Shown here: one piece after another, positions 6,294-31,169 of the stretch
Position numbering within the stretch: position 1 is the first letter of the stretch
Layout of the letters: the number at the start of each line of letters is the position of its first letter
IMG/VR virus record: IMGVR_UViG_3300022752_000099
Span: 1-53,269 of that record
Reading direction: 5' to 3' (one strand)
Length of the DNA stretch: 53,269 bases
From: a virus
Lineage: Duplodnaviria > Caudoviricetes
Notes under the pieces: model-generated
Told to the model about the DNA's origin: nothing
Database searches by the model: none
Seen by the model: only the letters and a program-made list of their open reading frames with translations
Program-made: the position numbers and the translations under genes

Positions 6294-6311
6294 ACTAAAA
6301 GAGATGATGTT

Positions 6312-7676: not shown

Positions 7677-7717
7677 CATATTTATCTATCCCTAATAATA
7701 TTAACATCATAAACTAT

Positions 7718-10015: not shown

Positions 10016-10063
10016 ATACTGTATTTATATTCGAAAATTAGATATTTATTAAAAAAGTATAAA

Positions 10064-10606: not shown

Positions 10607-12365
10607 TTTTATAGATTTAGATTCAATTTTAGAATCGAAATCTGAAACGAAACCGGAAATAATTTCCGAGTCCGCAATTGCAACTGCATCAGAAAGTACC
10701 ACACCTGATATTGAAATGATATTGACTGAATGGGCCTGGAGATGTGATAAAGGATATCCGGTATGGGGCGATGTCAACGACATGAAAGTTTTACAACAAT
10801 TGTTACATGAAATGAAAGTGGATATTCAGTTGATTGACATCAGTCAATTGAACGAGTCTACTGCATTAGCCGAATCCAATACACCGGACATGAAAGAAAG
10901 TTTAGCAATTTTCTTTGCAACGTTGTCATCAAAATCTTTAGATTCAATTCAAAATAAAATTATCAGTAAAAGTGATGTTAAACTTTCATTGAAGGTACCT
11001 AACTCAGCATCACCATATTACGGTTCTAAAGGATTCGCTTTATTGAATTCTGCAGTCGATTATTTGAATTTGAATGTAATTGATTCTGCTACCGGTAAAT
11101 TGTATTTGAATGCAATTTCAATTGCAAGAAAACTTCAAAAAACTTTTGGCGGTCCTGTATTGCAAAGTGTAATTGATAGAGGTAGAGATTACAATGTGAT
11201 TCGATCCAATGCTAAAAAAGTTTCCGGAGTATCGTATCCTGACAAATGGTGTCCAGCTGACATTTACATTTATAATGATAATAAGAGTAAAAAGATTGCG
11301 CAGTCTGCCAAGACATTGAATGTAGGTGAAAACAGTTTGAATGCAGCATTTAGTACTGAATTCGGGCCCGGCTCTGGAATTGTAGCAATTTCATTGAAAG
11401 AGCAGGAAGCTCAAGCCGGTAAGGCTACAGCATTTCGACAGATATTGAATAGAAATGAAAATTATCCTGCAGCCACTGAACTTTCTTCGGATGACAAGTA
11501 TACGATGGAATTGTTGTACAATTTAAATCAAAGTGTAACTCCAACGAAACCGACTCCGGATAAGTTGAAAATAGGTTACATAGCCGAAGCAGTTCGTTTA
11601 ATGGATGCATTGAAAATTGACTCATCAAACAAACTTAGAACTTCATTGCAGCGTACATTGGATGCAACATTCAATAACAAATCTAATGCATATAGAGGTC
11701 CGAAAGGAAACTACAATAAAGATGCTGCTAGAAAGTCGTTCGCAGATATGAATTTGAGTTCAATTAAATTTGATCCTAAATTGAAAAATAACATCGATGC
11801 GTTTGCAGAATCGATACACAATAAAGCTGAAACGGTATATAAAGATTCTAGAAAAACATTCCTATCAACTTTAAATAATTTCAAATTTAAAGTTACTGGA
11901 ACTAACGTGGCTCCAAGTAAAATGTCGGCGGAAGTTTTATATAAAAAAGCTTCATGTTATTTGGTTGCTGATTATCTTTTGAATGGATTGAATAGTAGCA
12001 ATTTGGTAGTACCAAAAGAATACGTTACATTAGCATCACAGAAAAATGCTTTTGTTGCTTTAACATCATATGCAATCGGCCAATCAGGTATATCACCCAC
12101 GTTTTTCAAATTAACCGGTAAGTCTAATGGAAGTGATGCTTCAGTTGAAGCGTTTTACGGATCCGGGTTCATGGATTTGGAAGCTGGTAGTATGAATGTG
12201 ATTGATTCACCGAACAATAAAGGATTTGACGTTCGATTCAATGCTATGGTTAGAAAGTCACCAAAAACTTCCTCAGAAATTTTAACTAGATATGCAGTGT
12301 TATTGTCATTCAGATATGCAGGTGACACTTTAAATATTGAAGTTTCCGAACTTAAGGAAGTTTAA
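10584..12365 (+). CDS. large hypothetical protein, possibly PD-(D/E)xK-like; start uncertain
   Basis: Long ORF; KWCPADIYIY...IVAISLK resembles a restriction-endonuclease-like core (weak). Confidence 0.6.
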   Translation: MMKNDTSNFIDLDSILESKSETKPEIISESAIATASESTTPDIEMILTEWAWRCDKGYPVWGDVNDMKVLQQLLHEMKVDIQLIDISQLNESTALAESNTPDMKESLAIFFATLSSKSLDSIQNKIISKSDVKLSLKVPNSASPYYGSKGFALLNSAVDYLNLNVIDSATGKLYLNAISIARKLQKTFGGPVLQSVIDRGRDYNVIRSNAKKVSGVSYPDKWCPADIYIYNDNKSKKIAQSAKTLNVGENSLNAAFSTEFGPGSGIVAISLKEQEAQAGKATAFRQILNRNENYPAATELSSDDKYTMELLYNLNQSVTPTKPTPDKLKIGYIAEAVRLMDALKIDSSNKLRTSLQRTLDATFNNKSNAYRGPKGNYNKDAARKSFADMNLSSIKFDPKLKNNIDAFAESIHNKAETVYKDSRKTFLSTLNNFKFKVTGTNVAPSKMSAEVLYKKASCYLVADYLLNGLNSSNLVVPKEYVTLASQKNAFVALTSYAIGQSGISPTFFKLTGKSNGSDASVEAFYGSGFMDLEAGSMNVIDSPNNKGFDVRFNAMVRKSPKTSSEILTRYAVLLSFRYAGDTLNIEVSELKEV

Positions 12366-12439
12366 TTGAATTTTTAATCGCTTAAACAAGATAGTTATAC
12401 CAAATTTCACCATATTTATATTAGATAACAAAAAAAACT

Positions 12440-12736
12440 ATGAAACTCACAGAATTCAAAAAATTAATCCGCGAAGAGGTTAAAAAAGTACTAAAGGAAG
12501 CCAAAAACGAAACCGTACTATTCTCAGGATATAAAAAATTTATGGATAGTAAGGCTGTTTTAAAGGTATTTGCAGACCATGGGGTAGATAAGTCAAAAAT
12601 GAAAAGAACGTATGATTGGGATAGTGATACGGTTGAATTGGTAGTGAATATTAATTTTAATACCGCAAAAAAAATTGGCGATGCGTTAGAAAAAATAGAT
12701 CGTAACGAAATGTATGGCGGTTGGATTGTTGATTGA
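12440..12736 (+). CDS. small protein with MKLTEFKKLIREEVKKVLKE tag
   Basis: Shares its N-terminus with the ORFs at 34278-35797; ATATTTAT upstream. Confidence 0.75.
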   Translation: MKLTEFKKLIREEVKKVLKEAKNETVLFSGYKKFMDSKAVLKVFADHGVDKSKMKRTYDWDSDTVELVVNINFNTAKKIGDALEKIDRNEMYGGWIVD

Positions 12737-12788
12737 AGTAAGTTAATTGAAGTAAGTTAATTGAAGTAAGTTAATTGAAGTAAGTTAA
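12733..12788. repeat. tandem repeat (TTGAAGTAAGTTAA)x4
   Basis: Four exact 14-bp copies. Confidence 0.97.
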
Positions 12789-12790
12789 TC

Positions 12791-12818
12791 GATGCCCCAT
12801 CCGGGGCATCCTACTTTT
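12791..12818 (+). terminator. GC-rich hairpin, probable terminator
   Basis: GATGCCCC-ATCC-GGGGCATC perfect 8-bp stem followed by CTACTTTT. Confidence 0.6.
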
Positions 12819-12829
12819 CGAATAAATAA

Positions 12830-12861
12830 TTTGTTGATTACGATTGTTTTTACTATATTTA
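12830..12861 (+). promoter_or_regulatory. Bacteroidota-type promoter TTTG-N20-TATATTTA
   Basis: Upstream of queD; same spacing as at 643, 38776 and 40051. Confidence 0.55.
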
Positions 12862-12877
12862 AAGAAATTAAGTTACA

Positions 12878-13354
12878 ATGGCACGTTACGTTTCTACAAA
12901 ACTATTTGACAACTTTTCGGTAGCATTGAGACAACATAAAGCAGCACATTCGCACTGTTGTTTGCTTCACGGTTACGCTTTTAAATTTAAAGTTTGGTTT
13001 GCTTCAATTGAATCTGATATTGATAAACAATTGGATTCTATGAATTGGATTGTGGATTTCGGAGGATTTAAGCCTCAGCCCGTAGGCAATGGGTTGAAAG
13101 ATTGGTTGAATCATATGTTTGATCATACAACTCTTATTGAAAAAGATGATCCATATTTAGATTTGTTTCAACAATTGGAGCAAATGGGACTATTACATTT
13201 ACGAGTAATGGACAAGATGGGTGCCGAGTCGATGGCTAAGTTGGTGTACGATAAATTTAATGATGTGCTGTCAAAAACTGATGCCGGTAGATGCAAGGTA
13301 ATTAAAGTAGAATGCTTTGAAAATGATAAGAATTCAGCGATTTATGAGGAATAA
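12878..13354 (+). CDS. queD: 6-carboxytetrahydropterin synthase
   Basis: CCLLHGY (CxxxHG), WIVDFG, FDH, AE, ECFE T-fold motifs. Confidence 0.9.
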   Translation: MARYVSTKLFDNFSVALRQHKAAHSHCCLLHGYAFKFKVWFASIESDIDKQLDSMNWIVDFGGFKPQPVGNGLKDWLNHMFDHTTLIEKDDPYLDLFQQLEQMGLLHLRVMDKMGAESMAKLVYDKFNDVLSKTDAGRCKVIKVECFENDKNSAIYEE

Positions 13355-13380
13355 ATCAATGACTTCAAATATTTATTGAT

Positions 13381-13935
13381 ATGAAATTGAAATCATTATT
13401 ACCTAAATTACTTACTGAACGATTCCTATCATTATTGTCAGTCGAAGATCGACGTAAATATATAGACGAAGTATGGGATATGTTACAGAAATCGTATGCA
13501 AAAGTGGGCGGATTTAAATCTGCACCTAATAAAGAGGAACTTTTAAAAGAAACTGATTTCTGGAAGTTGGTCAAAAAGAATGGTAAAATAGTTGCAATTG
13601 CTTTGTACAAGTTTAAACGAGGAAGAAAATCAATTGCAGGTGGTACGGATGGCACTGATTTAGGTAAAGAGTGGTTAATGAAAATATTTTTAGAAGACCT
13701 TCAACAAAACAGATCATGGTCTGAAGTATCAGATAAAGTTGAATTGATCAAAACAAAGATGGGTTATTTTAAAATACCGAACAAATTTGTTGAAGACATT
13801 TTAAATAAACCAATCATTTCATTGGACCCGGATGGATATCATTATACTAGAATGATTGCCGGTGAACCGCATACGAAAATGATGGTAGGTCATATTGACG
13901 GATTTCAAGTTCCAGAAGAATTTACAAATGATTAA
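13381..13935 (+). CDS. hypothetical protein with MKLKSLL..LLTE tag
   Basis: 184-aa ORF 4 nt after ATATTTAT. Confidence 0.7.
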   Translation: MKLKSLLPKLLTERFLSLLSVEDRRKYIDEVWDMLQKSYAKVGGFKSAPNKEELLKETDFWKLVKKNGKIVAIALYKFKRGRKSIAGGTDGTDLGKEWLMKIFLEDLQQNRSWSEVSDKVELIKTKMGYFKIPNKFVEDILNKPIISLDPDGYHYTRMIAGEPHTKMMVGHIDGFQVPEEFTND

Positions 13936-14509
13936 ATTGATATACATTCACGGATTTAAATCATCCGGTGAATCTGACAAATCTAGAATGCTTAAACAGG
14001 CATTTCCGAATGCAACGGTTGAAGCTCCTACATTGTCGCCTCGACCTGCTACTGCTATCAGTCAAATAGAATCTATAATTAAACGAAATCCTAGTAACAC
14101 TATATTGGTAGGTACTTCATTGGGAGGATTTTATTCACTGTATTTAGCTAGTAAGTTTGATATACCTGCATTCATTATCAATCCATCTTTGGAACCGAAT
14201 GTTACATTGATTTCAAAAGTAGGAACTCATACTAGATACGGTTCTGATGAAGAGTATGATTTCAAATTGCCGTATATTGATGAATTGGATGAAATGGTGA
14301 AACAGTTGGCTTCAATGCCGAAGCCGGGTAATTTACTGCATTTATATTTGTCAGAAGATGATGAACTATTATCATTTGAAAAATTGGACTCGGTGATACC
14401 GGTAAGAAAATTGACGCGATGGTTCAAATCAGCCGGGCATCGATTTACCAAGTTTTCAGAAGTTATACCAGATATTCAAGAAGTGATTAACGACTTTGAA
14501 AAATCATAA
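13928..14509 (+). CDS. YqiA/YcfP-family alpha/beta hydrolase
   Basis: YIHGFKSS, GTSLGG nucleophile elbow, INP, DELL, GHRF. Confidence 0.88.
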   Translation: MIKLIYIHGFKSSGESDKSRMLKQAFPNATVEAPTLSPRPATAISQIESIIKRNPSNTILVGTSLGGFYSLYLASKFDIPAFIINPSLEPNVTLISKVGTHTRYGSDEEYDFKLPYIDELDEMVKQLASMPKPGNLLHLYLSEDDELLSFEKLDSVIPVRKLTRWFKSAGHRFTKFSEVIPDIQEVINDFEKS

Positions 14510-14538
14510 GATTTCATTAAATTAATAAAAAATAAGTT

Positions 14539-14835
14539 ATGAGTAAATTAGCAAAGCCAATGGGCGATCGAGTATTGGTTAAACTTAAAAAATTCGATCA
14601 AAAGACGGCATCCGGAATCATTATACCTGATTCAGTAAATATTGATGATGTGCGAACTGCAGAAGTAGTTGCAGTAGGCGATGGTTTATTTTCAACATCT
14701 GGACAATTGGTACCGACTACAGTTAAAGTTGGTGATGAAGTTATATTCGGCCCGCATATTGGTATTGAAATAAAACTTTCAGGTGAAGATTATATATTAA
14801 TTCGTGAAGGTGACATTTATTTAATTTGTAGGTAA
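14539..14835 (+). CDS. groES: co-chaperonin GroES
   Basis: PMGDRVLVK, TASGIIIPD, VVAVGDG, VKVGDEV. Confidence 0.95.
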   Translation: MSKLAKPMGDRVLVKLKKFDQKTASGIIIPDSVNIDDVRTAEVVAVGDGLFSTSGQLVPTTVKVGDEVIFGPHIGIEIKLSGEDYILIREGDIYLICR

Positions 14836-14846
14836 TAAAAACAGTT

Positions 14847-15212
14847 ATGCATAAAATATATCATAAAACTATTGATCAAATTGAAGTAGGAGATATAGTG
14901 ACTACTGCCACTAAATGTACCGATTCTGCAATGTTACGAATCGGAGTTGTTTCAAATATTGTTTCAAATATTGTCGATAATATTATTACGATTAAGACAT
15001 TGATACCGACTTATGATAGAAACAATCAATTGATCAAGTATCGACTTAATCAAGTTACCAGAAGTAAACAATATAGACGATATTCTTATGTAATTTATAA
15101 AGGGGATTTATTGAACTCATTTTCACCTGAGGAAATCAACGTATTAAAATCTAGTTACACTAGAATTGGTGGAAATCATGAAACAATTTTTGATTACATT
15201 TCAAATTTATAA
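14847..15212 (+). CDS. hypothetical protein
   Basis: ORF with AGTTATG start context. Confidence 0.65.
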   Translation: MHKIYHKTIDQIEVGDIVTTATKCTDSAMLRIGVVSNIVSNIVDNIITIKTLIPTYDRNNQLIKYRLNQVTRSKQYRRYSYVIYKGDLLNSFSPEEINVLKSSYTRIGGNHETIFDYISNL

Positions 15213-15214
15213 TA

Positions 15215-15970
15215 ATGCCAGTAACTCTAATTTCATCCAATCCGACTTTCACAAAAGATCGAGTTGGTTCTAAAACAGATTGCATTGCAATTGCTGAATT
15301 GTTCGGTAATACTATTCAAGGTGAAGGCATTAACGCCGGAGTTCCTGCAACGTTTCTTCGAGTAAAAGACTGCACTCTCGATTGTGTTTGGTGTGATACT
15401 TTATCAGTATGGAAATTCGGTAACTGGTACACTCACGAAGAGGTATTTGAAATGTTTGAAAAATTCAATTTGATTGAAGCATTTCGAAATGGCCAACATT
15501 TAATTTTGACAGGCGGTTCTCCACTCAAGCAAAGTAAAACTTTAGTTACATTTATTGAAAAGTTTATTGAACGTTATTCATTTAAACCGTATATTGAAGT
15601 TGAAAATGAAGTGGTATTGATGCCGGGTGAATTGACTTTGTATGTAGATTGTTGGAACAATTCTCCGAAATTAGCAAATTCCGGTATGGAGAAATCCAAG
15701 CGATTGAAGCCGGAGTATTTGAAATACATGAGTAGACAAAACAATAGTTGGTTTAAGTTTGTTATTTCGAGTAGATCTGATTGGGATGAAATTGTAGAAG
15801 ACTTTCTACCGCATATCAAAAAAGAACAAATTATTTTGATGCCGTGTGGTGAAAATCAAATTGAACTAAATTCTAGTAGAGAATTGGTTGCAGAACTTGC
15901 AGTAGAACATGCAGTCCGAATGACAGATCGACTTCATGTAACGATTTGGGATAAGAAGACAGGCGTATAA
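15215..15970 (+). CDS. queE: 7-carboxy-7-deazaguanine synthase (radical SAM)
   Basis: TIQGEG, FLR..CTLDCVWCDT, LTGG, SPK, FKFV, RLH. Confidence 0.92.
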   Translation: MPVTLISSNPTFTKDRVGSKTDCIAIAELFGNTIQGEGINAGVPATFLRVKDCTLDCVWCDTLSVWKFGNWYTHEEVFEMFEKFNLIEAFRNGQHLILTGGSPLKQSKTLVTFIEKFIERYSFKPYIEVENEVVLMPGELTLYVDCWNNSPKLANSGMEKSKRLKPEYLKYMSRQNNSWFKFVISSRSDWDEIVEDFLPHIKKEQIILMPCGENQIELNSSRELVAELAVEHAVRMTDRLHVTIWDKKTGV

Positions 15971-15980
15971 TAAAATAGTT

Positions 15981-16616
15981 ATGAGATCATTAGTGTCTAT
16001 AGACTTTGAAACTACTGGACTTAACTTCGTTAACGACTACCCGGTGCAATGGGCCGTTACAAAAATTGATTCAGTACAAGGTAAAACTCAATTTAAAACT
16101 TTATCCGGTTACATTAAGACTGATATTGAAATATCAAGTACAGTGGAACAACTTACCGGTTTGAGTTATGAATTTCTAAATGAAAATGGTGTATCATATG
16201 ATGAAGGTATGTTGCAGTGTATTGAAGCAATAGGATTGTCTCAAGAAAAACCTACCGATTCAATCATATTAGTGGGACATAACGTGTTGAATTTTGACAT
16301 TCATTTTCTTGAAATGGCAGCGGCTAAGCTCGGATATTATATTCCGGATACAAAGTATTATTGGGATACTGCAGCTCATTATAAAGCTCAGCAACTCGGT
16401 CTTAAGAAAGATGTGAACGAGTCTATACGTGAATATCATCAAAGAGCTCTAGGTACTTATGCAAAAGGTATCAAATTTAAATTGCCGATTGTATGTGAAC
16501 ATTTAGGAATTCCGTTGACTGCTCACCATGATGCTGTACATGATGCAAATGCAGCTTTGATGATTGCTATTAAACAGATGTCTAGTTTCCCGGAAGCTAA
16601 AGAACTGTTTGAATAA
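15981..16616 (+). CDS. DEDDh 3'-5' exonuclease (DnaQ-like)
   Basis: DFETTG, GHNVLNFD, HDAVHD. Confidence 0.88.
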   Translation: MRSLVSIDFETTGLNFVNDYPVQWAVTKIDSVQGKTQFKTLSGYIKTDIEISSTVEQLTGLSYEFLNENGVSYDEGMLQCIEAIGLSQEKPTDSIILVGHNVLNFDIHFLEMAAAKLGYYIPDTKYYWDTAAHYKAQQLGLKKDVNESIREYHQRALGTYAKGIKFKLPIVCEHLGIPLTAHHDAVHDANAALMIAIKQMSSFPEAKELFE

Positions 16617-16661
16617 TTCAATTGATATCAATATATTAATATTTCAAAATAAAAAAAAGTT

Positions 16662-17897
16662 ATGATAGCGAAACGACCGATATTTTTCCCGAGCTTTAGT
16701 ACGGGTGAGTTTGCCAATGAATGTAAACAAAATAAAATTTTAGGCGGTAAAGTACCAGTTCGATTTTATTCTAAAGATTTTCCTGAAGAATACAGACATC
16801 CTTACTTTCTAATTACAGCCGGACATTTGTACAAGAAAAAAGACTTTAGAGCTCAATTAGGCTTGGAAGATGCATTTGTAATGGGTGACTCCGGTGGTTA
16901 TCAAATTGCAATGGGTGCTATTAAGTGGGACATGAATATTCGACATGAAATATTTGAATGGTTGGAAAACAATTCAGATCTTGCAATGAATATTGATATT
17001 CCGCCATACGGTGATATGGCCGGTAAGTTTGATCAATGTTTAACTATCAGTGTAGACAATTTCAAATATTTTGCAGACAAGCAGACCGGTAAAACCAAAT
17101 TTCTAAATGTACTTCAAGGTAACAATTACAAGCAAAGATTGAAGTGGTACAATGCTGTAAAAGACTTTGAATTTTCTGGTTGGTCACTAGGAGGTTGTAG
17201 AATTCCGTATCGCTTTTGTGCTGCTATCACTGCATTGGTTCAAGGTAAAGAACATCTAAATCCTAGAAATGAATACATTCACATTCTGGGTACTACAAAG
17301 ATCAATGATTTCTTTTATTTGTCTCAATTGCAAAAATCGCTTTCTGAAGTCGGTTCCAATATGACTGTAACCACAGACTCTAGTTCACCTAGTAGATCGG
17401 TGGCATTTGGTCTTTATTATATTGGTGCCAATTTGAATATTGATTCTTTCAAATCAATTCATATTCCTAAAGCCAATTCTGCAAATAAAAAGTTTGTAGT
17501 TCCTGAATGTATTCAAACGATTTTACCGCATCAATATGATATGCCGATGCCGGTAGTTACTGAATTTGACAAACTGTTATCGCCTCTATATACTTATGGT
17601 GATTGCGTGAACAATGTAAATGACAGTACGATGTACATGTCTATGCACAATTTCATGTTGTATCAGGATGTTATGAAGACGGTATCCAATTACGTTAATC
17701 ATCATGATTATCTGTTATCTCAAGTTTCATCGGCTACTACTAGAAAGGTGATGAAAATTATTGATGAAATTGTTAAGTCTGATGATCCTGAAAAAGTACT
17801 TCATGCAAATGAATCGTATTTGGTTTCATTGAGTACAGTCGTTAACAGATCCAATTCAACTGAATCTGTACATAATGAATTTTTCGATATCAAATGA
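16662..17897 (+). CDS. dpdA: TGT-like transglycosylase, putative DNA 7-deazaguanine insertase
   Basis: DSGGYQ, MNIDIPP, VLQG, GWSLGG, HILG, TDSSS; lies between queE and folE; no evident C-terminal Zn site of tRNA TGT. Confidence 0.75.
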   Translation: MIAKRPIFFPSFSTGEFANECKQNKILGGKVPVRFYSKDFPEEYRHPYFLITAGHLYKKKDFRAQLGLEDAFVMGDSGGYQIAMGAIKWDMNIRHEIFEWLENNSDLAMNIDIPPYGDMAGKFDQCLTISVDNFKYFADKQTGKTKFLNVLQGNNYKQRLKWYNAVKDFEFSGWSLGGCRIPYRFCAAITALVQGKEHLNPRNEYIHILGTTKINDFFYLSQLQKSLSEVGSNMTVTTDSSSPSRSVAFGLYYIGANLNIDSFKSIHIPKANSANKKFVVPECIQTILPHQYDMPMPVVTEFDKLLSPLYTYGDCVNNVNDSTMYMSMHNFMLYQDVMKTVSNYVNHHDYLLSQVSSATTRKVMKIIDEIVKSDDPEKVLHANESYLVSLSTVVNRSNSTESVHNEFFDIK

Positions 17898-17915
17898 TTT
17901 TAATATCTTTAAGTT

Positions 17916-18518
17916 ATGAATAGTAAAACAATACAATTAAAAGAAGGTCAATTAGAACAGGCCGCCGAACAGTTTGGTTTATTTTTGAAAGCGATTGGTT
18001 TTGAAGATTATGAAAACAATCCGCACATGGCTGATACTCCGATGCGAGTGACTAAAGCGTATGTAGAAGATCTTTTCAAAGGATTGTATACAGATGCTCC
18101 GAAAATTACTGCCTTTGAAAATACTAACGGATATGACGGTATAGTTTTTCAGGGTGATGTTGAAGTGAAAAGTTGCTGCTCGCATCACTTCCTACCGTTT
18201 GTCGGTAAGGCGCATGTAGCTTATATCCCGGGCCCGGACGGTAAAGTAATTGGTTTGTCAAAATTGAATAGAATTGTAGAATGGTTCGCGAGACGCCCTC
18301 AGGTTCAGGAAAACCTAACAATGGAAGTTCACAATTATATTGACACCGTATGTACTGGTAATAGAGGCGTTGCTGTTATGATTCAAGCTAAACATATGTG
18401 TGCTTCATGTAGAGGTGTAAATCATGATTCTACAATGATGACTGCAAAATTATCCGGAGCATTTGAAACTAATGATGCTACTAGAAATGAATTTTACAAA
18501 TTTGTGGAACGACTATGA
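17916..18518 (+). CDS. folE: GTP cyclohydrolase I
   Basis: [39 protein letters not shown]. Confidence 0.96.
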
Positions 18519-19462
18519 TTAATGATGATTCTATTTTGATTTTAGGCCTCGGCGGTATCGGTAAATTGTACAATCGAGTTTGCAATACTTTATTGGGTGA
18601 AGATCGAGTTTATACAGTAGATCCAAATCCTGCAGCAGATGCGATGTTCACAGAAATTCCTGAAGGTTGTAAATTTAAATTGGGTATCATCTGTACTCCG
18701 AATTATCTGCATGAAAGTCAAATCAAATTTCTGTTATCAAACAATATCTGTAAAATTGTAATGGTTGAAAAGCCCGGTGTTGTTGATGTAACTATATGGG
18801 AGGAATTGCAGCTTCGATATCCGGATCGACTGATAATGGCTAAAAACAACTGCTATCGACCGGAACTGTATGATGCAATATTGAATAGTCACGGTAAATC
18901 AATTACTTCAATCAATTTGAATTGGATTTGTAAAGATCGAGTCCCTTCACCAGGTTCTTGGTTTACCAATTCAAAACAAAGTTTAGGAGGTGTATCTGTA
19001 GATTTGATGCCACATTTAATTAATGTAGCGACGGAATTGTTAGAACTATTTCCATCCGGGTTCGATCAAGTAACTGACATTACTGCCATTAAACAGCAGT
19101 TATATACTTTATCAGATGTCAATTCCACTGAATACGGTACTATTAATAAAGACGGTATTTATGACGTAGACGATCAAGCTGTATTACAATTCAGATATGA
19201 AAACATTCCAATTACTTTGGTAGCAGCTTGGAAGTCAAATCTTGAAAGCGATTCAATTAAATGGTCAATTACATTTTCCGATGATTCTGTATATGAGATC
19301 GAATTAGGATTATGTCCAGAGACTGCATATGAAAGTATGATTGCAAATATACTGGAAAATCAACACACGGAATGGCATATAGATTTAGACATGTTCACTC
19401 ATAAACTGCTAAGTGCATTTAAAGTGGATTCATTCGACATTCACAATGATACTAGACCTTAA
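18515..19462 (+). CDS. Gfo/Idh/MocA-family oxidoreductase
   Basis: GLGGIG Rossmann, CTPNYLH, VEKP, GGV..DLMPH, VDD. Confidence 0.85.
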
Positions 19463-19488
19463 CATTAAAGTTACAATTGAAATTTTTC

Positions 19489-19516
19489 AAGAACCTTTTT
19501 GTTAAGGTTCTTTTTT
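19489..19516 (+). terminator. hairpin terminator next to a TATATTTA promoter element
   Basis: AAGAACCTT-6 nt-AAGGTTCTT then TTTT; TATATTTA at 19519-19526. Confidence 0.5.
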
Positions 19517-19546
19517 ACTATATTTAACAAAATAAAAAAGTTAGTT

Positions 19547-20524
19547 ATGACACAATTTGAACGAGTAGTCACGTTACATTCATTTAATACTGGAAGTATT
19601 GAAGAAGTGGTATGGGAAAGACCTCATATCAATCCTGATGAGGTAGTAGTAGAAACCAAATTATGCGGTTTCTGTAGAAGCGATGTAGGATCAGTTGCTA
19701 GATTTGAAGCAATGCCGTACAGTGATGCGGAGAATCCTAATGGTAAAATCGGAGGCCTCGGTCATGAAGGTTTAGGCGTTGTAGTAGAAGTAGGTGACAA
19801 TGTTACTGACATTAAAGTTGGTGATGTAGTATCTACATGGGGCGATCCGGCATTTGCCTACAAGTATAATGTAAAGGCGAATGAAGCAATAAAAGTACCT
19901 GAAGTGTCTCCGAAGTACATTTTACAGCCGACTGCCTGTTCAATCAATATTGCAATGAAAACTATTGATGCGTGCAGTAAAATAAATGCATGTAATTCTC
20001 CGAAAATTTTATTGTTAGGAACTGGATTCATGAGTTTGATTATCGGTCAATACTTTAAAAATTGTAACATACAATTTGATGTGGTAGGCTCGGCAAACAA
20101 ACGAGATTGGCATGAATTGTATATTCAATTGAAAACCATCGATCAAATAGCCGGTAATCAGTATGATGCAGTTATTGATTTGACTTCGAAAGCTGCAAAT
20201 TGGGACTTGATTGCAGATCTCAATCTGTTGAAGCCGGAAGGAATTTTGTGTTACGCTTCCACTCCATATACGCCGGTAACAACCAACTTCTTCAAACAAT
20301 GTTGGAATTGTTATACTATCATTATGCCGTCGCCTCGTAATTCAGACTTCGATCAAATTATGCGTAAGACTGCATTACTAATTCGACTTGGAGCAATCAA
20401 TCCAGCACCATATTGGACTAAAGGATATGCAAGGTCTTCAATGGATGAAGTACTTCAAGCATTCACTGATGGATTGAATAGAACCCCGGATTACATTCGC
20501 GGATATATTGATTACACCAAATGA
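19547..20524 (+). CDS. Zn-dependent medium-chain dehydrogenase
   Basis: CGFCRSD, GHEGLGVVVEVG..V..IKVGD, GTGFM Rossmann. Confidence 0.85.
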   Translation: MTQFERVVTLHSFNTGSIEEVVWERPHINPDEVVVETKLCGFCRSDVGSVARFEAMPYSDAENPNGKIGGLGHEGLGVVVEVGDNVTDIKVGDVVSTWGDPAFAYKYNVKANEAIKVPEVSPKYILQPTACSINIAMKTIDACSKINACNSPKILLLGTGFMSLIIGQYFKNCNIQFDVVGSANKRDWHELYIQLKTIDQIAGNQYDAVIDLTSKAANWDLIADLNLLKPEGILCYASTPYTPVTTNFFKQCWNCYTIIMPSPRNSDFDQIMRKTALLIRLGAINPAPYWTKGYARSSMDEVLQAFTDGLNRTPDYIRGYIDYTK

Positions 20525-20542
20525 TTTTATTATCTTTAATTT

Positions 20543-21583
20543 ATGAAAACAGTATACATAGTTGATTTAGAATCAATTGAAACTCGTTATACGAGTCAAT
20601 GGGCATGGCATATTCCGAATGTATTGAATGATTACATTCATTCTAACAATTTGCAAGATAAGTATCGAGTTCAAACCATATCCGGTACCAATGATATTCC
20701 GGAGGCCACTACTCCCGGCGCATTTTTAAATTTCGGTGGTACTAACATTTACAAGTCTTCTCAACTCATTGAAATTGGTAAAATGTTTTGCGATGGTACT
20801 GTAAAGGCAGGTGATGTGTTTCTATATACGGATGCATGGAATCCTACCATACTTCAATTGAAATACATGAGCACTCTGTTGAACATTCCAGTATCAATTG
20901 TCGGTATTTGGCACGCTGGTAGTTGGGATCCTAACGATTTTATTGGTAGAGTTGAAAACAAACAATGGATCAAACATTCTGAACTCGCTTTACTGACGTC
21001 AATCAATTACAATTTGGTTGCCACTGAGTATCATGCAGAATTGATTCACAATTACTTTGATCGCGATGCTATTATTGATTTATGGAAGACCGGATTTCCT
21101 TTTGAATATCTGCAGTCCATGATCACTCCGGGTACGAAACGTGATATGATTTTGTTCCCACATAGAATTGCGCCTGAAAAACAATTGTCAGTGTTTAAAC
21201 AATTGTCTGAAATGTTGCCTCAATATGAGTGGGTAGTATGTCAAGAAAAACAGTTGACTAAAAATGAATATCATCAGTTATTGAGTGAAGCGAAAATAGT
21301 ATTTTCTGCAAATCTTCAGGAAACCTTAGGTATTAGTATGTATGAAGGAGTATTAGCTGAAGCTATCCCGGTTGTACCTGATAGACTTTCATATACAGAA
21401 ATGTACTCTGATGAATTTAAATATACAGATTCAGCAAGTATTGATGAAATCGCAAAACACATAACTCACGTAATGGAAAATTATGAATCATATAAAAGTA
21501 AACTACCACTGTTAAAGCTCAAACTCGATGAGCAGTTTTTCTCCGGACACTCCATGTATGACATAATTTTTAAACTAGCATAA
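20543..21583 (+). CDS. GT-B fold glycosyltransferase
   Basis: HRIAPEKQ and QETLGISMYEG (E-x7-E) donor-binding motif. Confidence 0.8.
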   Translation: MKTVYIVDLESIETRYTSQWAWHIPNVLNDYIHSNNLQDKYRVQTISGTNDIPEATTPGAFLNFGGTNIYKSSQLIEIGKMFCDGTVKAGDVFLYTDAWNPTILQLKYMSTLLNIPVSIVGIWHAGSWDPNDFIGRVENKQWIKHSELALLTSINYNLVATEYHAELIHNYFDRDAIIDLWKTGFPFEYLQSMITPGTKRDMILFPHRIAPEKQLSVFKQLSEMLPQYEWVVCQEKQLTKNEYHQLLSEAKIVFSANLQETLGISMYEGVLAEAIPVVPDRLSYTEMYSDEFKYTDSASIDEIAKHITHVMENYESYKSKLPLLKLKLDEQFFSGHSMYDIIFKLA

Positions 21584-24132
21584 TGTATCAAAACATATAT
21601 TACGATCGAAATACCAATTTAATTCACCTTTGGGATGACACTAGAGGTTATTTGAAATTCGCATACAACCGTTACGGATATAAAAAGGCTGATAACGGTA
21701 AATTTACAGCTCTAGACGGAACTAGACTACAGAAAGTTCAACGCTGGTCAAAGGAAGATGAAGCTGCAGGCAGCATGTATGAATCGGATCTTAGACCGGA
21801 AATGCGAACTCTGATAGACATGTATTTGGATTCTGATGACATTTCTACCAATCATAGAAATCTTTTTATAGATATTGAAGTTTCATCGGAAGGAGGTCAC
21901 GCTACTACCAAAAACGTGAAAAATGAAATTACTGCAATTTCAATGTATCAGCAGGCTGATGACAAGTTTTACACATTACTACTCAACCCGGAAGGAAACT
22001 TAAAAGACTTCAAGAAAGATAAAGTTCAAGTATTGGTTTATGAAACTGAAGATGAACTGCTTCAATCATTTTATTCATTGTATACCAATTATCAGCCCAC
22101 TATTATTACTGGTTGGAATATAGACGGTTACGATATACCGTACATATACAATCGAACCAACATGGTTTTAGGTGAAACGTATGCTAATCTTCTTTCTCCG
22201 ATTGAAATAGTTGAAACTGACAAATTCGGTATAGTAAAGATTGCCGGTGTAGCTTGTCTCGATTATTTGGCATTGTACAAGTTGTATACTTATTCAGAAG
22301 AATCTTCATACAGATTGGAAGCTATTGCAAGAAAAGAATTGGGTAGAGGTAAAGTGGAATATGAAGGCTCATTGGATCAATTGTATAAAACGGATATTGA
22401 CAAGTTTATTGATTACAATGTTTGCGACGTTCAACTCATTATTGATTTGGATAAAAAGCTGCAATTCATACAGCAAGCAATGGGTGTAGCTCATAAAGGT
22501 CATGTCCCATACGGGGACGTATACAAGTCGACTAGATTTCTAGATGGAGCTTGTATCACGTTTATTAAGCGTCGAGGTCTCGTAGTACCCAATATTAATA
22601 GAACTGTTACAGCGGTATCTGAAGAAGATCAATCTGAATCCGGTGGTGATTTTGAAGGTGCATATGTAAAAATTCCTGTACCCGGTAGATATGTATGGGT
22701 TTATGATATAGATATGTCTGCTCTGTATCCTTCAGTGATTAGATTGTTGAACATATCACCGGAGACAAAGGTAGGTAGAGTTTCAAATTGGGATTCAATT
22801 AAAACGCATTTCGTAAATGGTACGACTTCCACAGAACGCGTTATAATACCTGGAATATCTTTGAATATCAAAGTCCATGAATTACGAGACTGGTTGATAT
22901 CGAATACCTATAGCATTTCTAGTATAGGTGTTATATATGATATGAAGAAACCCGGTATAGTACCTACCATATTGACTACATGGATGCAGGAACGAGATGA
23001 TTATCGAGCTTTATCCAAACAATTTGGTAAGTCCGGTGATATAGATAAAAGAAATTTCTACGAGTCAAGACAGTTGACAATGAAGATTATCAACAATTCA
23101 TTGTACGGTGTATTGGGTAACAGAGGATTTAGATTTTATGACTTGGATAATGCTGAATCAATTACTACTACCGGTAAGAGTGCATTGATGAATCATGCTG
23201 AACCTAGAGCCAATAGATGGTATTTGGAAAAGTTAGGAATAACCGGAGACAATGTTATTTACGTTGATACAGATTCGGTATTTTGTTCAGCATTACCGGT
23301 GATAAATCATATGGAGTCGGTAATGAACAGAGAGTTGTCGTATGAAGAGAAACGAGATGCCACGTACAAGACTGCCATATCAGTGGAACAGTATATCAAC
23401 GATACATTCACTGAACATACAATGTTACATCATAATGTGAAGAACAATATATTGACTATCAAACAGGAATATGTGTCAGAAGCAGCTTTCTGGGTGACAA
23501 AGAAACGATATGCTCAAAAAATTGTATTGGAAAAAGGCGTTTCAATTGAAAACATCACTAACGGTAAATCTAAATGGAAGCTGGATGTAAAAGGTATGGA
23601 TTCAGTTCGATCAGACTTTCCGAAAGCATTTCGTAAGTTCATGTCTGAAATGTTGATTTTGATTTTAGATGGAGTTGATAGAAATGTATTGGATACCAAG
23701 ATCAATGAAATGTATGAAGCCATGAATTCAGTGGAACTGTTTGATATCATGTTCCCGACAGGAGTAAAAGAAATTAGCAAATATCCATCGCTCGGCCTGT
23801 TTCAAAGATCAAAAGGTACTCCGGCTCACGTGAAAGCTGCATTAAATTACAATGATTTCATTACAATGATTCAAAGTACTGCATTGCCATTCAATGACGG
23901 TGACAAGATTATGTGGTGTTATTTGAAACCCAATAAATTTGGTTTGCAAAATATTGCTTTACGAGGCTATGAAGATCCAATCGAAATCGTTAAATTTGTG
24001 AATGATTTTATTGATCGAGAATCAATATTTGAGAGTGCCTTATTCAATAAGTTAAATGATTTCTATTCCGCATTAAAGTTCGGTGAAATCACATTAAATA
24101 ACAATGTTAATGAATTTTTCTCATTCAATTGA
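21583..24132 (+). CDS. polB: family B DNA polymerase (gp43-like)
   Basis: DIE, GWNIDGYD, YNVCD, DMSALYPS, KIINNSLYG, YVDTDS, KKRY. Confidence 0.97.
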   Translation: MYQNIYYDRNTNLIHLWDDTRGYLKFAYNRYGYKKADNGKFTALDGTRLQKVQRWSKEDEAAGSMYESDLRPEMRTLIDMYLDSDDISTNHRNLFIDIEVSSEGGHATTKNVKNEITAISMYQQADDKFYTLLLNPEGNLKDFKKDKVQVLVYETEDELLQSFYSLYTNYQPTIITGWNIDGYDIPYIYNRTNMVLGETYANLLSPIEIVETDKFGIVKIAGVACLDYLALYKLYTYSEESSYRLEAIARKELGRGKVEYEGSLDQLYKTDIDKFIDYNVCDVQLIIDLDKKLQFIQQAMGVAHKGHVPYGDVYKSTRFLDGACITFIKRRGLVVPNINRTVTAVSEEDQSESGGDFEGAYVKIPVPGRYVWVYDIDMSALYPSVIRLLNISPETKVGRVSNWDSIKTHFVNGTTSTERVIIPGISLNIKVHELRDWLISNTYSISSIGVIYDMKKPGIVPTILTTWMQERDDYRALSKQFGKSGDIDKRNFYESRQLTMKIINNSLYGVLGNRGFRFYDLDNAESITTTGKSALMNHAEPRANRWYLEKLGITGDNVIYVDTDSVFCSALPVINHMESVMNRELSYEEKRDATYKTAISVEQYINDTFTEHTMLHHNVKNNILTIKQEYVSEAAFWVTKKRYAQKIVLEKGVSIENITNGKSKWKLDVKGMDSVRSDFPKAFRKFMSEMLILILDGVDRNVLDTKINEMYEAMNSVELFDIMFPTGVKEISKYPSLGLFQRSKGTPAHVKAALNYNDFITMIQSTALPFNDGDKIMWCYLKPNKFGLQNIALRGYEDPIEIVKFVNDFIDRESIFESALFNKLNDFYSALKFGEITLNNNVNEFFSFN

Positions 24133-24133
24133 T

Positions 24134-24478
24134 ATGAAAACAGAAATTATAGTTACACTTGCAGTAGACGGTATTCATAAGTTCCCAGCTGCTCATCAAC
24201 TGTTTCCGGAAGTTGCATTTCTTTCCTATGATCACAGACATGCATTTCACTTCAAGATTTACAAATTGGTTCAACATGATGATCGAGATGTAGAGTTTAT
24301 CATGTTTAAACGAGATGTTTTGCAATACTTGAACAAGTATTATGATACTGAACTTAGAAGTTTAAACTTCGGTGCTAGGTCCTGCGAAATGTTAGCCAAA
24401 GAAATTTTGTTGCAATTCGACTGTACTCAAGTTGAAGTATGGGAAGATCTGGAAAATGGTGCTAGAGTTACTAAATGA
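24134..24478 (+). CDS. dpdL: QueD-paralogous T-fold protein, DpdL-like (putative CDG decarboxylase)
   Basis: LSYDHRHAF (LxxxHRHxF in place of CxxxHGH), DVEF, SCEMLA, VEVWED; motif recalled from the literature, not searched. Confidence 0.65.
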   Translation: MKTEIIVTLAVDGIHKFPAAHQLFPEVAFLSYDHRHAFHFKIYKLVQHDDRDVEFIMFKRDVLQYLNKYYDTELRSLNFGARSCEMLAKEILLQFDCTQVEVWEDLENGARVTK

Positions 24479-25413
24479 AATTGATAGTAGTATTCGAAGA
24501 TCAACTTCGAACTATTTATTGGATTGATAATCTGATTGATCGACTTTCCAATGAAAAGACGCAAGTAATTAGATGCAGTTCTCAAACTGAATTGAATTCA
24601 ATATACAGGCAGCATGGTAAAAAAATGAACTATGCTAAAATTATTGTATTGAATTCAATGAGTGAAGCGCCTATTTCAATAGTCAGATTGAACGATTACT
24701 TTCAAGTGAATCCGAAGACTGTATTACTTTGGCCATACATGGAACAGTTTGATTCGAGTTGGTGGCTTCATATAAGTAGAGCTGTATACAAATTGTCCGG
24801 GCTATGTAGTGTTGTATTGAATGAACCGTATATCATTGACAAGTTCTATTCAAGTATACCGAAGAACAGTATGATGAATGTGATATTCACTTCATATCCG
24901 GTGATATATCCGAATACAGGACTGAAAGTGAACAAATCAAACTCAATAGCAATTCATGCGCCTGAGTACATGTTACATGATATAGAACAGATTTCTATCA
25001 TCTTGTCTAAAGAAACCGGATACACTGTAACGCCATTATCTATACCAGGTAAACTATGTGACGGTAACAAGTTCATGCAATTCGTGAATGAATGTAAAAT
25101 TTTAATTGATTTACATCCGGTATCATGGTTAGGTGAATCGTTGATTCAGGTGTCAAACAGAGATTGCATTGCAGTTACTGAGAAAATTGGTTACGGGTAT
25201 TTCGCTCGAAACTGCGTGCATGATTTGAAATATCATATTGATGTAAAATCATTCAACTCAATACCTGATTTTGTTACTGCATTGCCATCGATAAAGCACA
25301 TGGTCCATGAAATTATACAATCGTATGATTCTATCATATCAGAAAACAAAAGCAGGATTGATCGAATTGTAGAAACCTGTTTTAATCCTGATAAATTTAT
25401 TGAAACTTTATAA
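24475..25413 (+). CDS. hypothetical protein, probable degenerate GT-B paralog
   Basis: C-terminal half aligns by eye with the 20543 glycosyltransferase but lacks its E-x7-E residues. Confidence 0.55.
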   Translation: MKLIVVFEDQLRTIYWIDNLIDRLSNEKTQVIRCSSQTELNSIYRQHGKKMNYAKIIVLNSMSEAPISIVRLNDYFQVNPKTVLLWPYMEQFDSSWWLHISRAVYKLSGLCSVVLNEPYIIDKFYSSIPKNSMMNVIFTSYPVIYPNTGLKVNKSNSIAIHAPEYMLHDIEQISIILSKETGYTVTPLSIPGKLCDGNKFMQFVNECKILIDLHPVSWLGESLIQVSNRDCIAVTEKIGYGYFARNCVHDLKYHIDVKSFNSIPDFVTALPSIKHMVHEIIQSYDSIISENKSRIDRIVETCFNPDKFIETL

Positions 25414-30239: not shown

Positions 30240-30245
30240 AAAGTT

Positions 30246-30600: not shown

Positions 30601-30602
30601 AA

Positions 30603-31131: not shown

Positions 31132-31169
31132 TTTTTGTAATCATCACCATATTTATAATAAAAGAAAAT

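Follow-up and report, generated by a model that had tools for sequence, protein, structure and literature searches.

A glycosyltransferase and a dehydrogenase pair accompany a QueC-less 7-deazaguanine gene cluster in a tailed virus

The 53,269-nucleotide stretch of viral DNA analyzed here (the window), which derives from a large uncultured phage and is the entire IMG/VR record IMGVR_UViG_3300022752_000099 (CheckV completeness 26%), very probably encodes a 7-deazaguanine DNA-modification system of the QueC-less, DpdL type. Embedded among its genes are a glycosyltransferase (GT), whose family is specific to DpdL-type deazaguanine clusters, and two dehydrogenases, one of the Gfo/Idh/MocA type and one of the MDR family, which form a fixed pair. 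We see about an even chance that the virion DNA holds a sugar-bearing 7-deazaguanine that protects it against restriction. The window DNA may, in other words, contain an undescribed sugar-bearing purine, and the GT and dehydrogenases accompany deazaguanine genes in hundreds of phages.

The 7-deazaguanine pathway genes

All of the genes listed by the earlier note are present where it placed them, as open frames on the plus strand. Three of them, encoding FolE (GTP cyclohydrolase I, positions 17916–18518; Pfam GTP_cyclohydroI, E 9.2e-54), a QueD-like 6-carboxytetrahydropterin synthase (12878–13354) and the radical-SAM 7-carboxy-7-deazaguanine synthase QueE (15215–15970), would, judging from their families, convert GTP to 7-carboxy-7-deazaguanine (CDG). 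The QueD-like protein is matched by Pfam PTPS (E 2.7e-12) and by a QueD-like PHROG (E 2.5e-32), and its alignment with ACP17 and related loci gives the motif CxxxHGY, not CxxxHGH, a form also found in the annotated QueD of ACP17. QueE matches a QueE-like PHROG (E 9.6e-48) as well as the NCBIfam QueE models (E 2.9e-18 to 3.6e-13, all under the equivalog cut-offs). The cluster is non-contiguous: its stretch from QueD to DpdA includes five genes that are mostly absent from related loci, namely two frames of 184 and 121 aa and the genes for a UPF0227 esterase, GroES and a DEDDh exonuclease. Genes for a ribonucleotide reductase and for a dNMP kinase are also present in the window, and a second, separate sugar cluster, with GT4, GT2, PseC-like aminotransferase and PseH-like acetyltransferase genes, is located at 45944–53267.

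The DpdA-like guanine transglycosylase (16662–17897) is a distant relative of DpdA3, with weak matches by sequence (Pfam TGT, E 0.008; NCBIfam TgtA, E 2e-5). Its structural model (mean pLDDT 79.4) has the TIM-barrel fold of TGT, and its best 50 Foldseek matches in the PDB are all to the Zymomonas mobilis TGT (E about 1e-10, TM 0.48–0.62). Pairwise BLASTP with the DpdA3 of ACP17 gave E 9e-6, with 20% identity over 207 residues and a common DSGGxQ motif; a tblastn search of phiST and ACP17 with the window protein yielded zero matches at E <= 1e-5, and a profile of 18 DpdA-like relatives matched nothing among the PDB sequences. Thus compared by sequence, the window protein may represent a branch separate from the DpdA3 subfamily. 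As a member of the TGT-fold family, it would swap guanine in DNA for a deazaguanine base.

The QueD paralogue that the earlier note had singled out for its LxxxHRHxF motif is DpdL, the proposed CDG decarboxylase (24104–24478; the alignment suggests the ATG at 24134 as the true start). Residues 40–48 read L-S-Y-D-H-R-H-A-F, and L40, H44, R45, H46 and F48 are invariant across 14 sequences; this signature is described as replacing the CxxxHGH of QueD (PMC10516641). Homology to known DpdL proteins is evident from tblastn matches in phiST (38.7% identity over 95% of the query, E 2e-20) and ACP17 (40% identity, E 4e-12) and from PHROG 17812 (E 2.7e-29). DpdL would strip the carboxyl group from CDG to give 7-deazaguanine; this decarboxylation is a published proposal, and expression in E. 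coli is reported to have yielded no dDG (PMC10516641).

In the window, DpdL is accompanied by DpdA, FolE, QueD and QueE and by neither QueC nor QueF, as is expected of DpdL. The absence of queC and queF, also recorded in the earlier note, was borne out by empty searches with PF06508 and PF14489 in the window, which represents 26% of the genome. QueC is likewise missing from five larger related records, among which is one with a completeness rating of 100%; the search of these gave a single sub-threshold match of 15.4 bits. The pathway without QueC is of the DpdL type, as had been supposed, although it is not in itself new, being the published phiST/ACP17 type (PMC10516641).

The glycosyltransferase and its genomic context

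The GT (20543–21583) is a GT-B enzyme of the GT4 (retaining) type. The final base of its gene also begins the gene for a family B DNA polymerase (PolB, 21583–24132; Pfam DNA_pol_B, E 1.1e-33), which we mention as context: PolB separates the GT from DpdL in the window and, to judge from gene orders, flanks the cluster in most related loci. The structural model of the GT (pLDDT 87.3) shows the two Rossmann domains of the GT-B fold, and E260 and E268, at a spacing of seven residues, do not vary across 24 sequences. Such an E-x7-E glutamate pair in the C-terminal domain is a motif of GT4-like, retaining enzymes. Because the protein scores under the gathering cut-off of Pfam Glycos_transf_1 (23.4 versus 26.4 bits; the homologue in locus L001 scores exactly 26.4), we class it as GT4-like by fold and motif, and not as a curated family member.

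Among solved structures, the GT model best matches sucrose-phosphate synthase (6kih; VIA Z 25.8, rmsd 3.2, 318 residues aligned), BshA (6n1x; VIA Z 24.6) and, further, MshA and GlgM, all GT4 enzymes with small-molecule acceptors. A tetrahydrobiopterin glucosyltransferase ranks 18th (Z 20.7) and the T4 alpha-glucosyltransferase 40th (1y6f; Z 17.3, rmsd 4.2 over 294 residues), so that the modeled fold is no nearer to the T4 DNA glucosyltransferase than to many small-molecule GT4 enzymes. Members of the family have a median pI of 5.8; this mild acidity speaks only slightly against DNA binding.

At the end of the cluster lies a 312-aa frame (24475–25413) that had been described as a degenerate GT, and it is indeed a diverged paralogue of the cluster GT. 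The link runs through a relative: the frame matches the protein L005:13962-14966 over its full length (BLASTP, E 4e-9), and that protein in turn matches the window GT (E 6e-12). Direct profile comparison of the frame with the GT is non-significant (probability 0.5%, E 0.11), and in this alignment both E-x7-E glutamates are replaced. No family match was found for the frame in Pfam, PHROG or NCBIfam, and none in the phage collection. With its catalytic glutamates lost, the paralogue is probably inactive and would be accessory at most.

The association of the GT with deazaguanine genes is pervasive. Of 8000 proteins scored for membership in the GT family, 7999 reach E <= 1e-5, and 578 of 600 IMG/VR stretches were confirmed to contain one. 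Co-occurrence with dpdA and dpdL, which the earlier note had named as a check on its proposal, proved strong: the best 80 IMG/VR GT loci contain DpdA in 67 cases, DpdL in 64, FolE in 51 and QueE in 40, and every one of the 80 holds at least one of the four. Where DpdL is present in these loci, it ends less than 700 nt upstream of the GT in 62 out of 64. Species-representative genomes contain only 12 GT loci, 11 of which have DpdA and/or DpdL. Cultured phages yielded 23 records with a GT match, of which 18 also match DpdL, and 29 DpdL-bearing records, of which 11 have no GT match. PA5oct, ACP17 and Phosso are among the cultured phages in which the GT stands beside DpdL, and gene orders vary among PA5oct, ACP17, Phosso, X1/BUDD, BUCT-ZZ01 and BCSR5; the frames of the GT and dpdA adjoin or overlap in several lineages, and in Phosso the GT adjoins DpdL though the DpdA-like gene is ~170 kb away. 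phiST has no match to the window GT, and since its guanine is completely replaced by dDG with DpdL and without the GT, the GT is dispensable for the base itself.

These observations are best accommodated if the GT4-like enzyme uses a nucleotide sugar to glycosylate the deazaguanine, whether as the free base, ahead of insertion, or once it is in the DNA. It counts against this reading that 7-deazaguanine lacks an obvious hydroxyl which a retaining GT4 enzyme could use as acceptor. The most serious competitor of a glycosylated DNA base is a soluble target: the base would be plain dDG or dCDG, as in phiST, and the GT and dehydrogenases would act on a soluble pathway molecule, which could be a pterin, giving a glycoside from FolE/PTPS-type intermediates, or surplus deazaguanine, glycosylated and so kept from host tRNA. 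We regard this as unlikely. It draws on the small-molecule acceptors of the top structural matches, on the rank of the tetrahydrobiopterin glucosyltransferase, on the nature of DpdL as a PTPS/QueD paralogue with a reaction that is only proposed, on the synthesis of dDG by phiST without a GT, and on HuiG, which is described as glycosylating a free 7-deazapurine base (bioRxiv 10.64898/2026.04.15.718813). It is opposed by the confinement of the GT to loci with DpdA, DpdL or CDG genes and by the contact of its frame with dpdA in several lineages; moreover, a glycosylated free base could be a substrate of DpdA, in which case the soluble target would merge with the sugar-bearing DNA base that we favor. 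To our knowledge, pterin glycosides have no reported role in phage infection, which also counts against it.

Two further alternatives are both quite improbable. According to the first, the GT and dehydrogenases have nothing to do with DNA but modify host or virion glycans, their position in the replication module reflecting early expression. Phages often carry glycosyltransferases for other purposes, and the window has its separate sugar cluster; however, across lineages that differ in gene order and host, the co-occurrence is exclusively with DpdL/DpdA, and in Phosso the GT has stayed by DpdL at a great distance from the DpdA-like gene. The second takes a nucleotide-level route, in which the deazaguanine is made into a nucleotide that the polymerase incorporates into DNA, and the GT-fold protein has a nucleotide or nucleoside as its substrate. 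It finds some support in related clusters, where a phosphoribosyltransferase (52 of 82 loci) and an HIT protein (28 of 82) occur, in the ribonucleotide reductase and dNMP kinase of the window, and in the toyocamycin and tubercidin pathways, in which phosphoribosyl transfer to 7-deazapurine bases is known. Nevertheless, the TGT-fold DpdA is kept in 67 of the best 80 GT-side and 77 of the best 80 MDR-side loci, and the phosphoribosyltransferase could equally salvage the guanine released by DpdA. The window itself (53 kb, approximately a quarter of the genome) is without genes for a phosphoribosyltransferase, an HIT protein or the uncharacterized protein f4/f37, which most relatives have together with the GT; this also counts against a sugar-bearing base.

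The dehydrogenase pair

The first member of the pair, a Gfo/Idh/MocA-type NAD(P) oxidoreductase (18515–19462) whose start overlaps the FolE stop by 4 nt, falls barely below two Pfam cut-offs (26.9 versus 27 bits and 23 versus 24 bits). EKP and Asp-x3-His are the catalytic motifs of Gfo/Idh/MocA enzymes, and E85-K86-P87, D163 and H167 are invariant across 11 sequences. A profile of 11 sequences matches 35 solved proteins of the Gfo/Idh/MocA type, the best being DgpA (7xr9; E 2.9e-11, profile positions 42–239), followed by uncharacterized Gfo/Idh/MocA proteins at E 1e-8 and, below them, by DgpA1 and DgpA2; glucuronide 3-dehydrogenase is also among the lower matches. The second member belongs to the MDR (zinc alcohol/polyol dehydrogenase) family (19499–20524; true start suggested by alignment to be the ATG at 19547) and scores 41.4 bits with Pfam ADH_N (cut-off 23.5). 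Its C59, H89, E90 and C147, which we take to be the catalytic zinc ligands, are invariant across 12 sequences. The best NCBIfam match, IolM, covers only the N-terminal part, and the top PDB matches of the MDR profile are zinc alcohol dehydrogenases, with similarity to known families limited to the N-terminal domain.

MDR relatives were confirmed in 471 of 508 IMG/VR stretches. The best 80 MDR-side loci contain Gfo in all 80 cases, DpdA in 77, DpdL in 75 and GT in 69; Gfo is directly upstream of MDR in 76 of them, and the usual order is DpdA-Gfo-MDR-f4-DpdL-GT. The association with deazaguanine genes thus extends to the dehydrogenases, with GT, DpdL or DpdA present in 78 of these 80 loci and the pair inside or beside a deazaguanine cluster in every one. 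The reverse does not hold: 69 of the best 80 GT loci, as well as the cultured phages outside the PA5oct group, ACP17, Phosso, X1, BUDD, BUCT-ZZ01 and BCSR5 among them, have GT and DpdL without the pair.

The earlier note had offered two roles for these enzymes, the making of an unusual sugar donor and the reduction of the C7 substituent to a hydroxymethyl handle. The former, or more generally sugar tailoring, is the better fit, because the corresponding places in related clusters are occupied by other sugar-nucleotide genes (phosphomannomutase, cytidylyltransferase-like, NAD epimerase/dehydratase and UDP-Glc/GDP-Man dehydrogenase) and because the Gfo profile is nearest to glycoside 3-oxidoreductases. 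Gfo and MDR would accordingly remodel the sugar or its donor by oxidizing it to a keto sugar and reducing it again, for example in an epimerization. The handle, glycosylated by the GT as T4 does with hydroxymethylcytosine, is the least probable of the alternatives: MDR enzymes do reduce aldehydes to alcohols, the pair keeps to the deazaguanine cluster and the T4 alpha-glucosyltransferase has a related fold, but the Gfo profile looks like that of a sugar-ring oxidoreductase, a pair that most GT loci lack cannot be needed for the GT acceptor, nothing would be left at C7 to reduce if DpdL removes the carboxyl carbon, and reduction of a carboxylate needs prior activation, for which no enzyme was seen among the cluster genes scanned with Pfam and NCBIfam. 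We know of no free-carboxylate reduction by either dehydrogenase family.

A more specific form of the sugar-bearing base, and an improbable one, is a C-glycoside, in which the GT would link C7 of 7-deazaguanine to the sugar through a carbon-carbon bond, and Gfo and MDR would remodel it through a 3-keto intermediate. C7 would be an electron-rich pyrrole carbon freed by DpdL decarboxylation, and the f4/f37 protein may assist in relatives. C-glycosylation at this position would account for the restriction of the GT to DpdL-type clusters and its absence from QueC-type ones. If true, this would be the first case in natural DNA of a C-glycosylated base and also of a sugar-bearing purine analogue.

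Comparison with known systems

Our literature search found no paper describing a module of deazaguanine, GT and dehydrogenase genes, and its parts are best compared with separate systems. In gut bacteria, DgpA initiates the degradation of plant C-glycosides. DgpA-type glycoside 3-oxidoreductases (7xr9, 9m3d and 9m37) provide the best solved match to the window Gfo, which keeps the Gfo/Idh/MocA catalytic motifs, but the similarity is distant and the biological setting different. The alpha- and beta-glucosyltransferases of T4 are likewise phage GT-B enzymes that add sugar to a non-canonical DNA base against restriction, the window acceptor being a predicted one. Their acceptor, however, is a hydroxymethyl pyrimidine (5-hydroxymethylcytosine), and many GT4 enzymes are structurally nearer to the window GT. 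Hydroxymethylases are homologues of the thymidylate synthase family; no dCMP or dUMP hydroxymethylase was seen in the window (26% of the genome), where the sole gene with the thymidylate-synthase fold is a split thyA, both fragments of which score above the TIGR03284 thymidylate synthase cut-off.

Sugar-bearing 7-deazapurines are described from two other settings. HuiG of the huimycin pathway is reported to transfer the sugar of UDP-GlcNAc onto a free 7-deazapurine base derived from the FolE/QueD/QueE route; likened here by its description, it differs in belonging to a bacterial secondary-metabolite cluster, in acting on a free O-methylated preQ0 derivative and in having no DNA insertion enzyme alongside (bioRxiv 10.64898/2026.04.15.718813). 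Mannosyl- and galactosyl-queuosine of animal tRNA are sugar-bearing 7-deazaguanine derivatives within a nucleic acid, but one that is RNA, and their sugar is described as sitting on the cyclopentene-ring hydroxyls of queuosine (PMC12518689), which is out of reach of the window pathway without QueC, QueF and QueA.

As a whole, the base pathway is closest in kind to the DpdL/DpdA3 system of the Cellulophaga phage phiST, which is described as comprising FolE, QueD, QueE, a DpdL with LxxxHRHxF and a distant TGT-like DpdA, without QueC, its pathway genes adjoining a DNA polymerase (PMC10516641). Unlike what we propose for the window, phiST DNA is reported to carry plain dDG, seen as an [M+H]+ 267 species (PMC10516641), and phiST has no match to the GT or to either dehydrogenase. 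The closest cultured carriers are the Pseudomonas jumbo phage PA5oct, with DpdA-GT-DpdL in a row and Gfo-MDR-f4 together elsewhere, and the Acidovorax phage ACP17, with FolE-f4-DpdA3-GT-DpdL-QueE; the window GT is 44% and 35.5% identical to their respective GTs. Both have another gene order than the window, in which PolB separates GT from DpdL, a degenerate GT is present in addition and f4 is missing from the 53 kb. The virion DNA of PA5oct is reported to resist five restriction enzymes with G-containing sites (PMC12191111).

Gene content of the cluster and its phage

The window, rated 26% complete by CheckV, encodes a T4-like replication set (SSB, UvsX, DnaB-like helicase, ribonucleotide reductase, family B polymerase, clamp loader, dNMP kinase and a split thymidylate synthase) and therefore derives from a large tailed phage, whose genome it covers only in part. 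Its G+C content is ~34%, and the + strand carries almost all of the genes. The cluster under study (12878-25413), for which megablast found no near-identical DNA in the phage collection, encodes, in order, a QueD-like protein, QueE interspersed with five extra genes, a DpdA-like protein (predicted TGT-fold DNA guanine transglycosylase), FolE, a Gfo/Idh/MocA oxidoreductase (Gfo), an MDR dehydrogenase, a glycosyltransferase (GT; 20543-21583), PolB, the QueD paralogue DpdL and a 312-aa frame. The Gfo start overlaps the FolE stop, and the last base of the GT gene is the first of PolB. All genes listed for this region in the earlier note are present in the order given there. The five genes missing from most relatives encode a 184-aa frame, a UPF0227 esterase, GroES, a 121-aa frame and a DEDDh exonuclease, the last being placed after QueE, unlike the other four. 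Overall, the gene order is intermediate between the arrangement typical of Pseudomonas phage PA5oct and its kin and a GT-DpdA-clamp arrangement.

The DpdA-like protein has only weak sequence matches to TGT, and no PDB sequence was matched by it or by a profile built from 18 relatives. Its TGT fold was settled by fold search, in which all 50 best PDB matches of the model (pLDDT 79) were tRNA-guanine transglycosylases; it also matches DpdA3 of Acidovorax phage ACP17 (E 9e-6), with DSGGxQ common to both. DpdL carries the published LxxxHRHxF motif and matches its counterparts in Cellulophaga phage phiST (E 2e-20) and ACP17 (E 4e-12). QueD, like the annotated ACP17 protein, has CxxxHGY in place of CxxxHGH. 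Neither QueC nor QueF is encoded in the 53,269-nt window (26% complete), and a search for QueC in the larger records of five relatives, including one with a rated completeness of 100%, returned nothing except one sub-threshold match. A deazaguanine pathway without QueC is not in itself new, since one is already described for phiST, which, according to the main text of PMC10516641, encodes FolE, QueD, QueE, DpdL and a distant DpdA and has its guanines fully replaced by 7-deazaguanine. In the same text, decarboxylation of 7-carboxy-7-deazaguanine (CDG) by DpdL is proposed, not proven, and DpdL with DpdA alone did not yield the 7-deazaguanine deoxynucleoside (dDG) in Escherichia coli, where a further factor is suspected to be missing.

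Several other features of the window deserve mention. A GOLLD RNA at 40596-41012 (+) spans all 416 positions of its Rfam model (RF02032, 251 bits) and is thus full-length, in agreement with a separate earlier note on this stretch. A 124-nt element at 39218-39341 (+) weakly matches the Rfam tRNA model (37.5 bits) and could represent a tRNA that carries an insert; ARAGORN calls no tRNA in the whole window. The tetranucleotide CCGG, the most over-represented 4-base palindrome, occurs 212 times (a second-order Markov model predicts 135 copies, base composition 45), with only 2 copies within 30001-35000. Thymidylate synthase (30805-32892) is encoded by two frames split by an HNH/homing endonuclease gene (31170-31883); both fragments exceed the TIGR03284 thymidylate synthase cut-off. 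For the genes of this 26%-complete window, a T4-like hmC route was considered and set aside. A second, separate sugar cluster at 45944-53267 (+), extending past the 3' end, encodes two GT4-type glycosyltransferases (one also matching the Pfam 'GT4 in conflict systems' model), two GT2 proteins, a DegT-type aminotransferase nearest PseC, a GNAT protein nearest PseH and an FAD oxidoreductase, every match being below the equivalog cut-off.

The glycosyltransferase and its genomic company

The model of the cluster glycosyltransferase (pLDDT 87.3) is that of a GT-B enzyme of the GT4 kind, with Z 25.8 to sucrose-phosphate synthase and Z 24.6 to BshA, and a pair of glutamates seven residues apart is invariant. 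The best-conserved stretch, residues 53-71, is a near-invariant loop enriched in Thr, Pro, Gly and Phe and a candidate acceptor-binding loop; nowhere else is the model less confident (pLDDT < 50 at residues 56-63).

The 312-aa frame, which the earlier note had regarded as a degenerate glycosyltransferase, matches over its full length a protein of 334 aa that occupies the corresponding position in locus L005, the closest relative (BLASTP, E 4e-9), and the L005 protein in turn matches the window GT (BLASTP, E 6e-12). Compared directly with the GT alignment, the frame gave no significant match (probability 0.5%, E 0.11), so that homology is drawn from this two-step chain; in that same non-significant alignment, both motif glutamates are replaced. 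We call the frame a degenerate GT paralogue, seen among the related loci and the phage collection only in the window and L005.

The GT family is very large in metagenomes (E <= 1e-5 for 7999 of 8000 scored proteins), with at least 578 relatives confirmed in IMG/VR among 600 matches listed. Neighbours were sought by tblastn around the 80 best of these at least 578 loci (49-60% identity), all 80 of which hold DpdA, DpdL, FolE or QueE, in agreement with the co-occurrence proposed in the earlier note. Individually, DpdA was found in 67/80, DpdL in 64/80, FolE in 51/80 and QueE in 40/80. Where at least 1.5 kb of sequence precedes GT (69 of the same 80 loci), DpdL is present in 60, and in 62 of the 64 DpdL-holding loci its end lies within 700 nt upstream of the GT start. 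Prokaryotic genomes, one for each of 185,579 species, contain only 12 GT loci, mostly on metagenome-bin contigs of unrelated phyla, and 11 of these hold DpdA and/or DpdL. Of 23 cultured-phage records that match GT, 18 also match DpdL, the other five being partial GT matches at 26% identity; the PA5oct group, ACP17, Phosso, X1/BUDD, BUCT-ZZ01 and BCSR5 all have the two genes side by side, although the gene order varies. Given that 11 of the 29 cultured DpdL records, phiST included, have no GT match, GT looks like an add-on downstream of DpdL.

Nine loci with the order PolB-f37-GT-DpdA-clamp and at least 1.5 kb upstream of GT have no DpdL nearby. We do not claim GT-bearing phages devoid of DpdL, because DpdL lies ~30 kb away in one of five partial records of this group and the other four are 13-37% complete. 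Separately, a 285-kb record rated 100% complete (L001) carries QueD, QueE, FolE, DpdL, f37, GT and DpdA at 5716-14966, followed by a second radical-SAM protein and, just downstream, a Cas12f1-like TNB-domain protein.

The dehydrogenase pair and other accessory genes

Gfo keeps EKP and D163/H167, and MDR keeps C59, H89, E90 and C147, so both are predicted to retain their catalytic residues. Relatives of MDR were confirmed in 471 of 508 IMG/VR stretches. At the best 80 of these 471 loci, Gfo is always present (80/80) and directly upstream of MDR in 76, with DpdA in 77, DpdL in 75 and GT in 69, usually in the order DpdA-Gfo-MDR-f4-DpdL-GT. The expectation that the dehydrogenases would accompany such clusters was borne out, with GT, DpdL or DpdA in 78 of the 80; the remaining two are a 5.4-kb contig and a locus in a 245-kb contig. 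Gfo and MDR are thus a dedicated pair. From the GT side, the pair occurs in only 11 of the best 80 of at least 578 loci; ACP17, for example, has GT and f4 without a Gfo-MDR match. Other GT loci have, in the same places, phosphomannomutase, a cytidylyltransferase-like protein, an NAD epimerase/dehydratase or a UDP-Glc/GDP-Man dehydrogenase. None of the three sugar modules was found in 40 of 82 related loci, within the stretch covered.

The nearest match of the Gfo profile is DgpA, a glycoside 3-oxidoreductase (E 2.9e-11), with DgpA1, DgpA2 and glucuronide 3-dehydrogenase lower in the list, below uncharacterised family members at E 1e-8; the likeness of MDR to zinc alcohol and polyol dehydrogenases is confined to the N-terminal domain. 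Of the two mechanisms offered in the earlier note, reduction of the C7 carboxyl group is disfavoured: together, these findings point to sugar tailoring.

Related clusters contain further genes. A protein of ~140-175 aa (f4/f37, working labels) lies beside DpdL or GT in 71 of 82 loci (e.g., L080:8511-9038, L017:9559-9999, ACP17 L003:7239-7724 and PA5oct 252688-253128); in PA5oct, f4 adjoins Gfo-MDR, ~25 kb from DpdA-GT-DpdL. It has no Pfam or PDB profile match, no copy in the 53-kb window and no match in phiST-type phages. The f4 profile reaches only 1 of 11 f37 sequences at E <= 0.01, although a joint alignment has ten invariant columns, including a G-x-E-x-E stretch. A purine-type phosphoribosyltransferase (52/82 loci), which might salvage DpdA-released guanine or make a deazapurine nucleotide, and a HIT-domain protein (28/82) are also incorporated (e.g., L032:10541-11089, L012:6528-7034 and L026:9082-9462).

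A putative sugar-bearing deazaguanine

Judging from the protein families, FolE, QueD and QueE would convert GTP to CDG, which DpdL would decarboxylate to 7-deazaguanine, as proposed in print, and the TGT-fold DpdA would swap the base in DNA. In the likeliest course, GT would place a sugar on the deazaguanine, as free base or in DNA, and Gfo and MDR would remodel the sugar through a keto intermediate. The strict linkage of GT to DpdL-type rather than QueC-type clusters suggests that the freed C7 position may matter. A soluble acceptor is possible, because many GT4 enzymes with small-molecule acceptors resemble GT at least as closely as T4 DNA glucosyltransferase does (Z 17.3), among them tetrahydrobiopterin glucosyltransferase (Z 20.7). 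Against a sugar on deazaguanine stand the production of dDG by phiST without GT and the lack, in the window, of its relatives' f4/f37, phosphoribosyltransferase and HIT genes. A sugar branch may also account for the failure of DpdL and DpdA alone to yield dDG in E. coli.

To our knowledge, every sugar described so far in natural DNA sits on a pyrimidine (glucosyl- and arabinosyl-hmC, base J and glycosylated 5-hydroxycytosine). If confirmed, a deazapurine bearing a sugar would add a new chemical class to the DNA hypermodifications, one found across a very large group of environmental phages and in PA5oct, a phage relevant to therapy. It would bear on resistance to restriction enzymes, CRISPR nucleases and modification-dependent nucleases, as well as on sequencing artefacts and new DNA-labelling enzymes, and the cultured phages allow a direct test. 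We found no description of a glycosylated deazaguanine in DNA, or of a role for GT, in openly available main texts and abstracts; "glycosyl" and "sugar" are absent from the main text of PMC10516641, and its supplementary Data S1 and S12 (DpdL phages and neighbouring genes) may mention the gene. The window contributes a dehydrogenase-side view with the DgpA likeness, a degenerate second GT and an intermediate gene order. There are two precedents: HuiG of the huimycin pathway glycosylates a free 7-deazapurine (bioRxiv 10.64898/2026.04.15.718813), and mannosyl- and galactosyl-queuosine in tRNA are sugar-bearing deazaguanines within a nucleic acid (PMC12518689).
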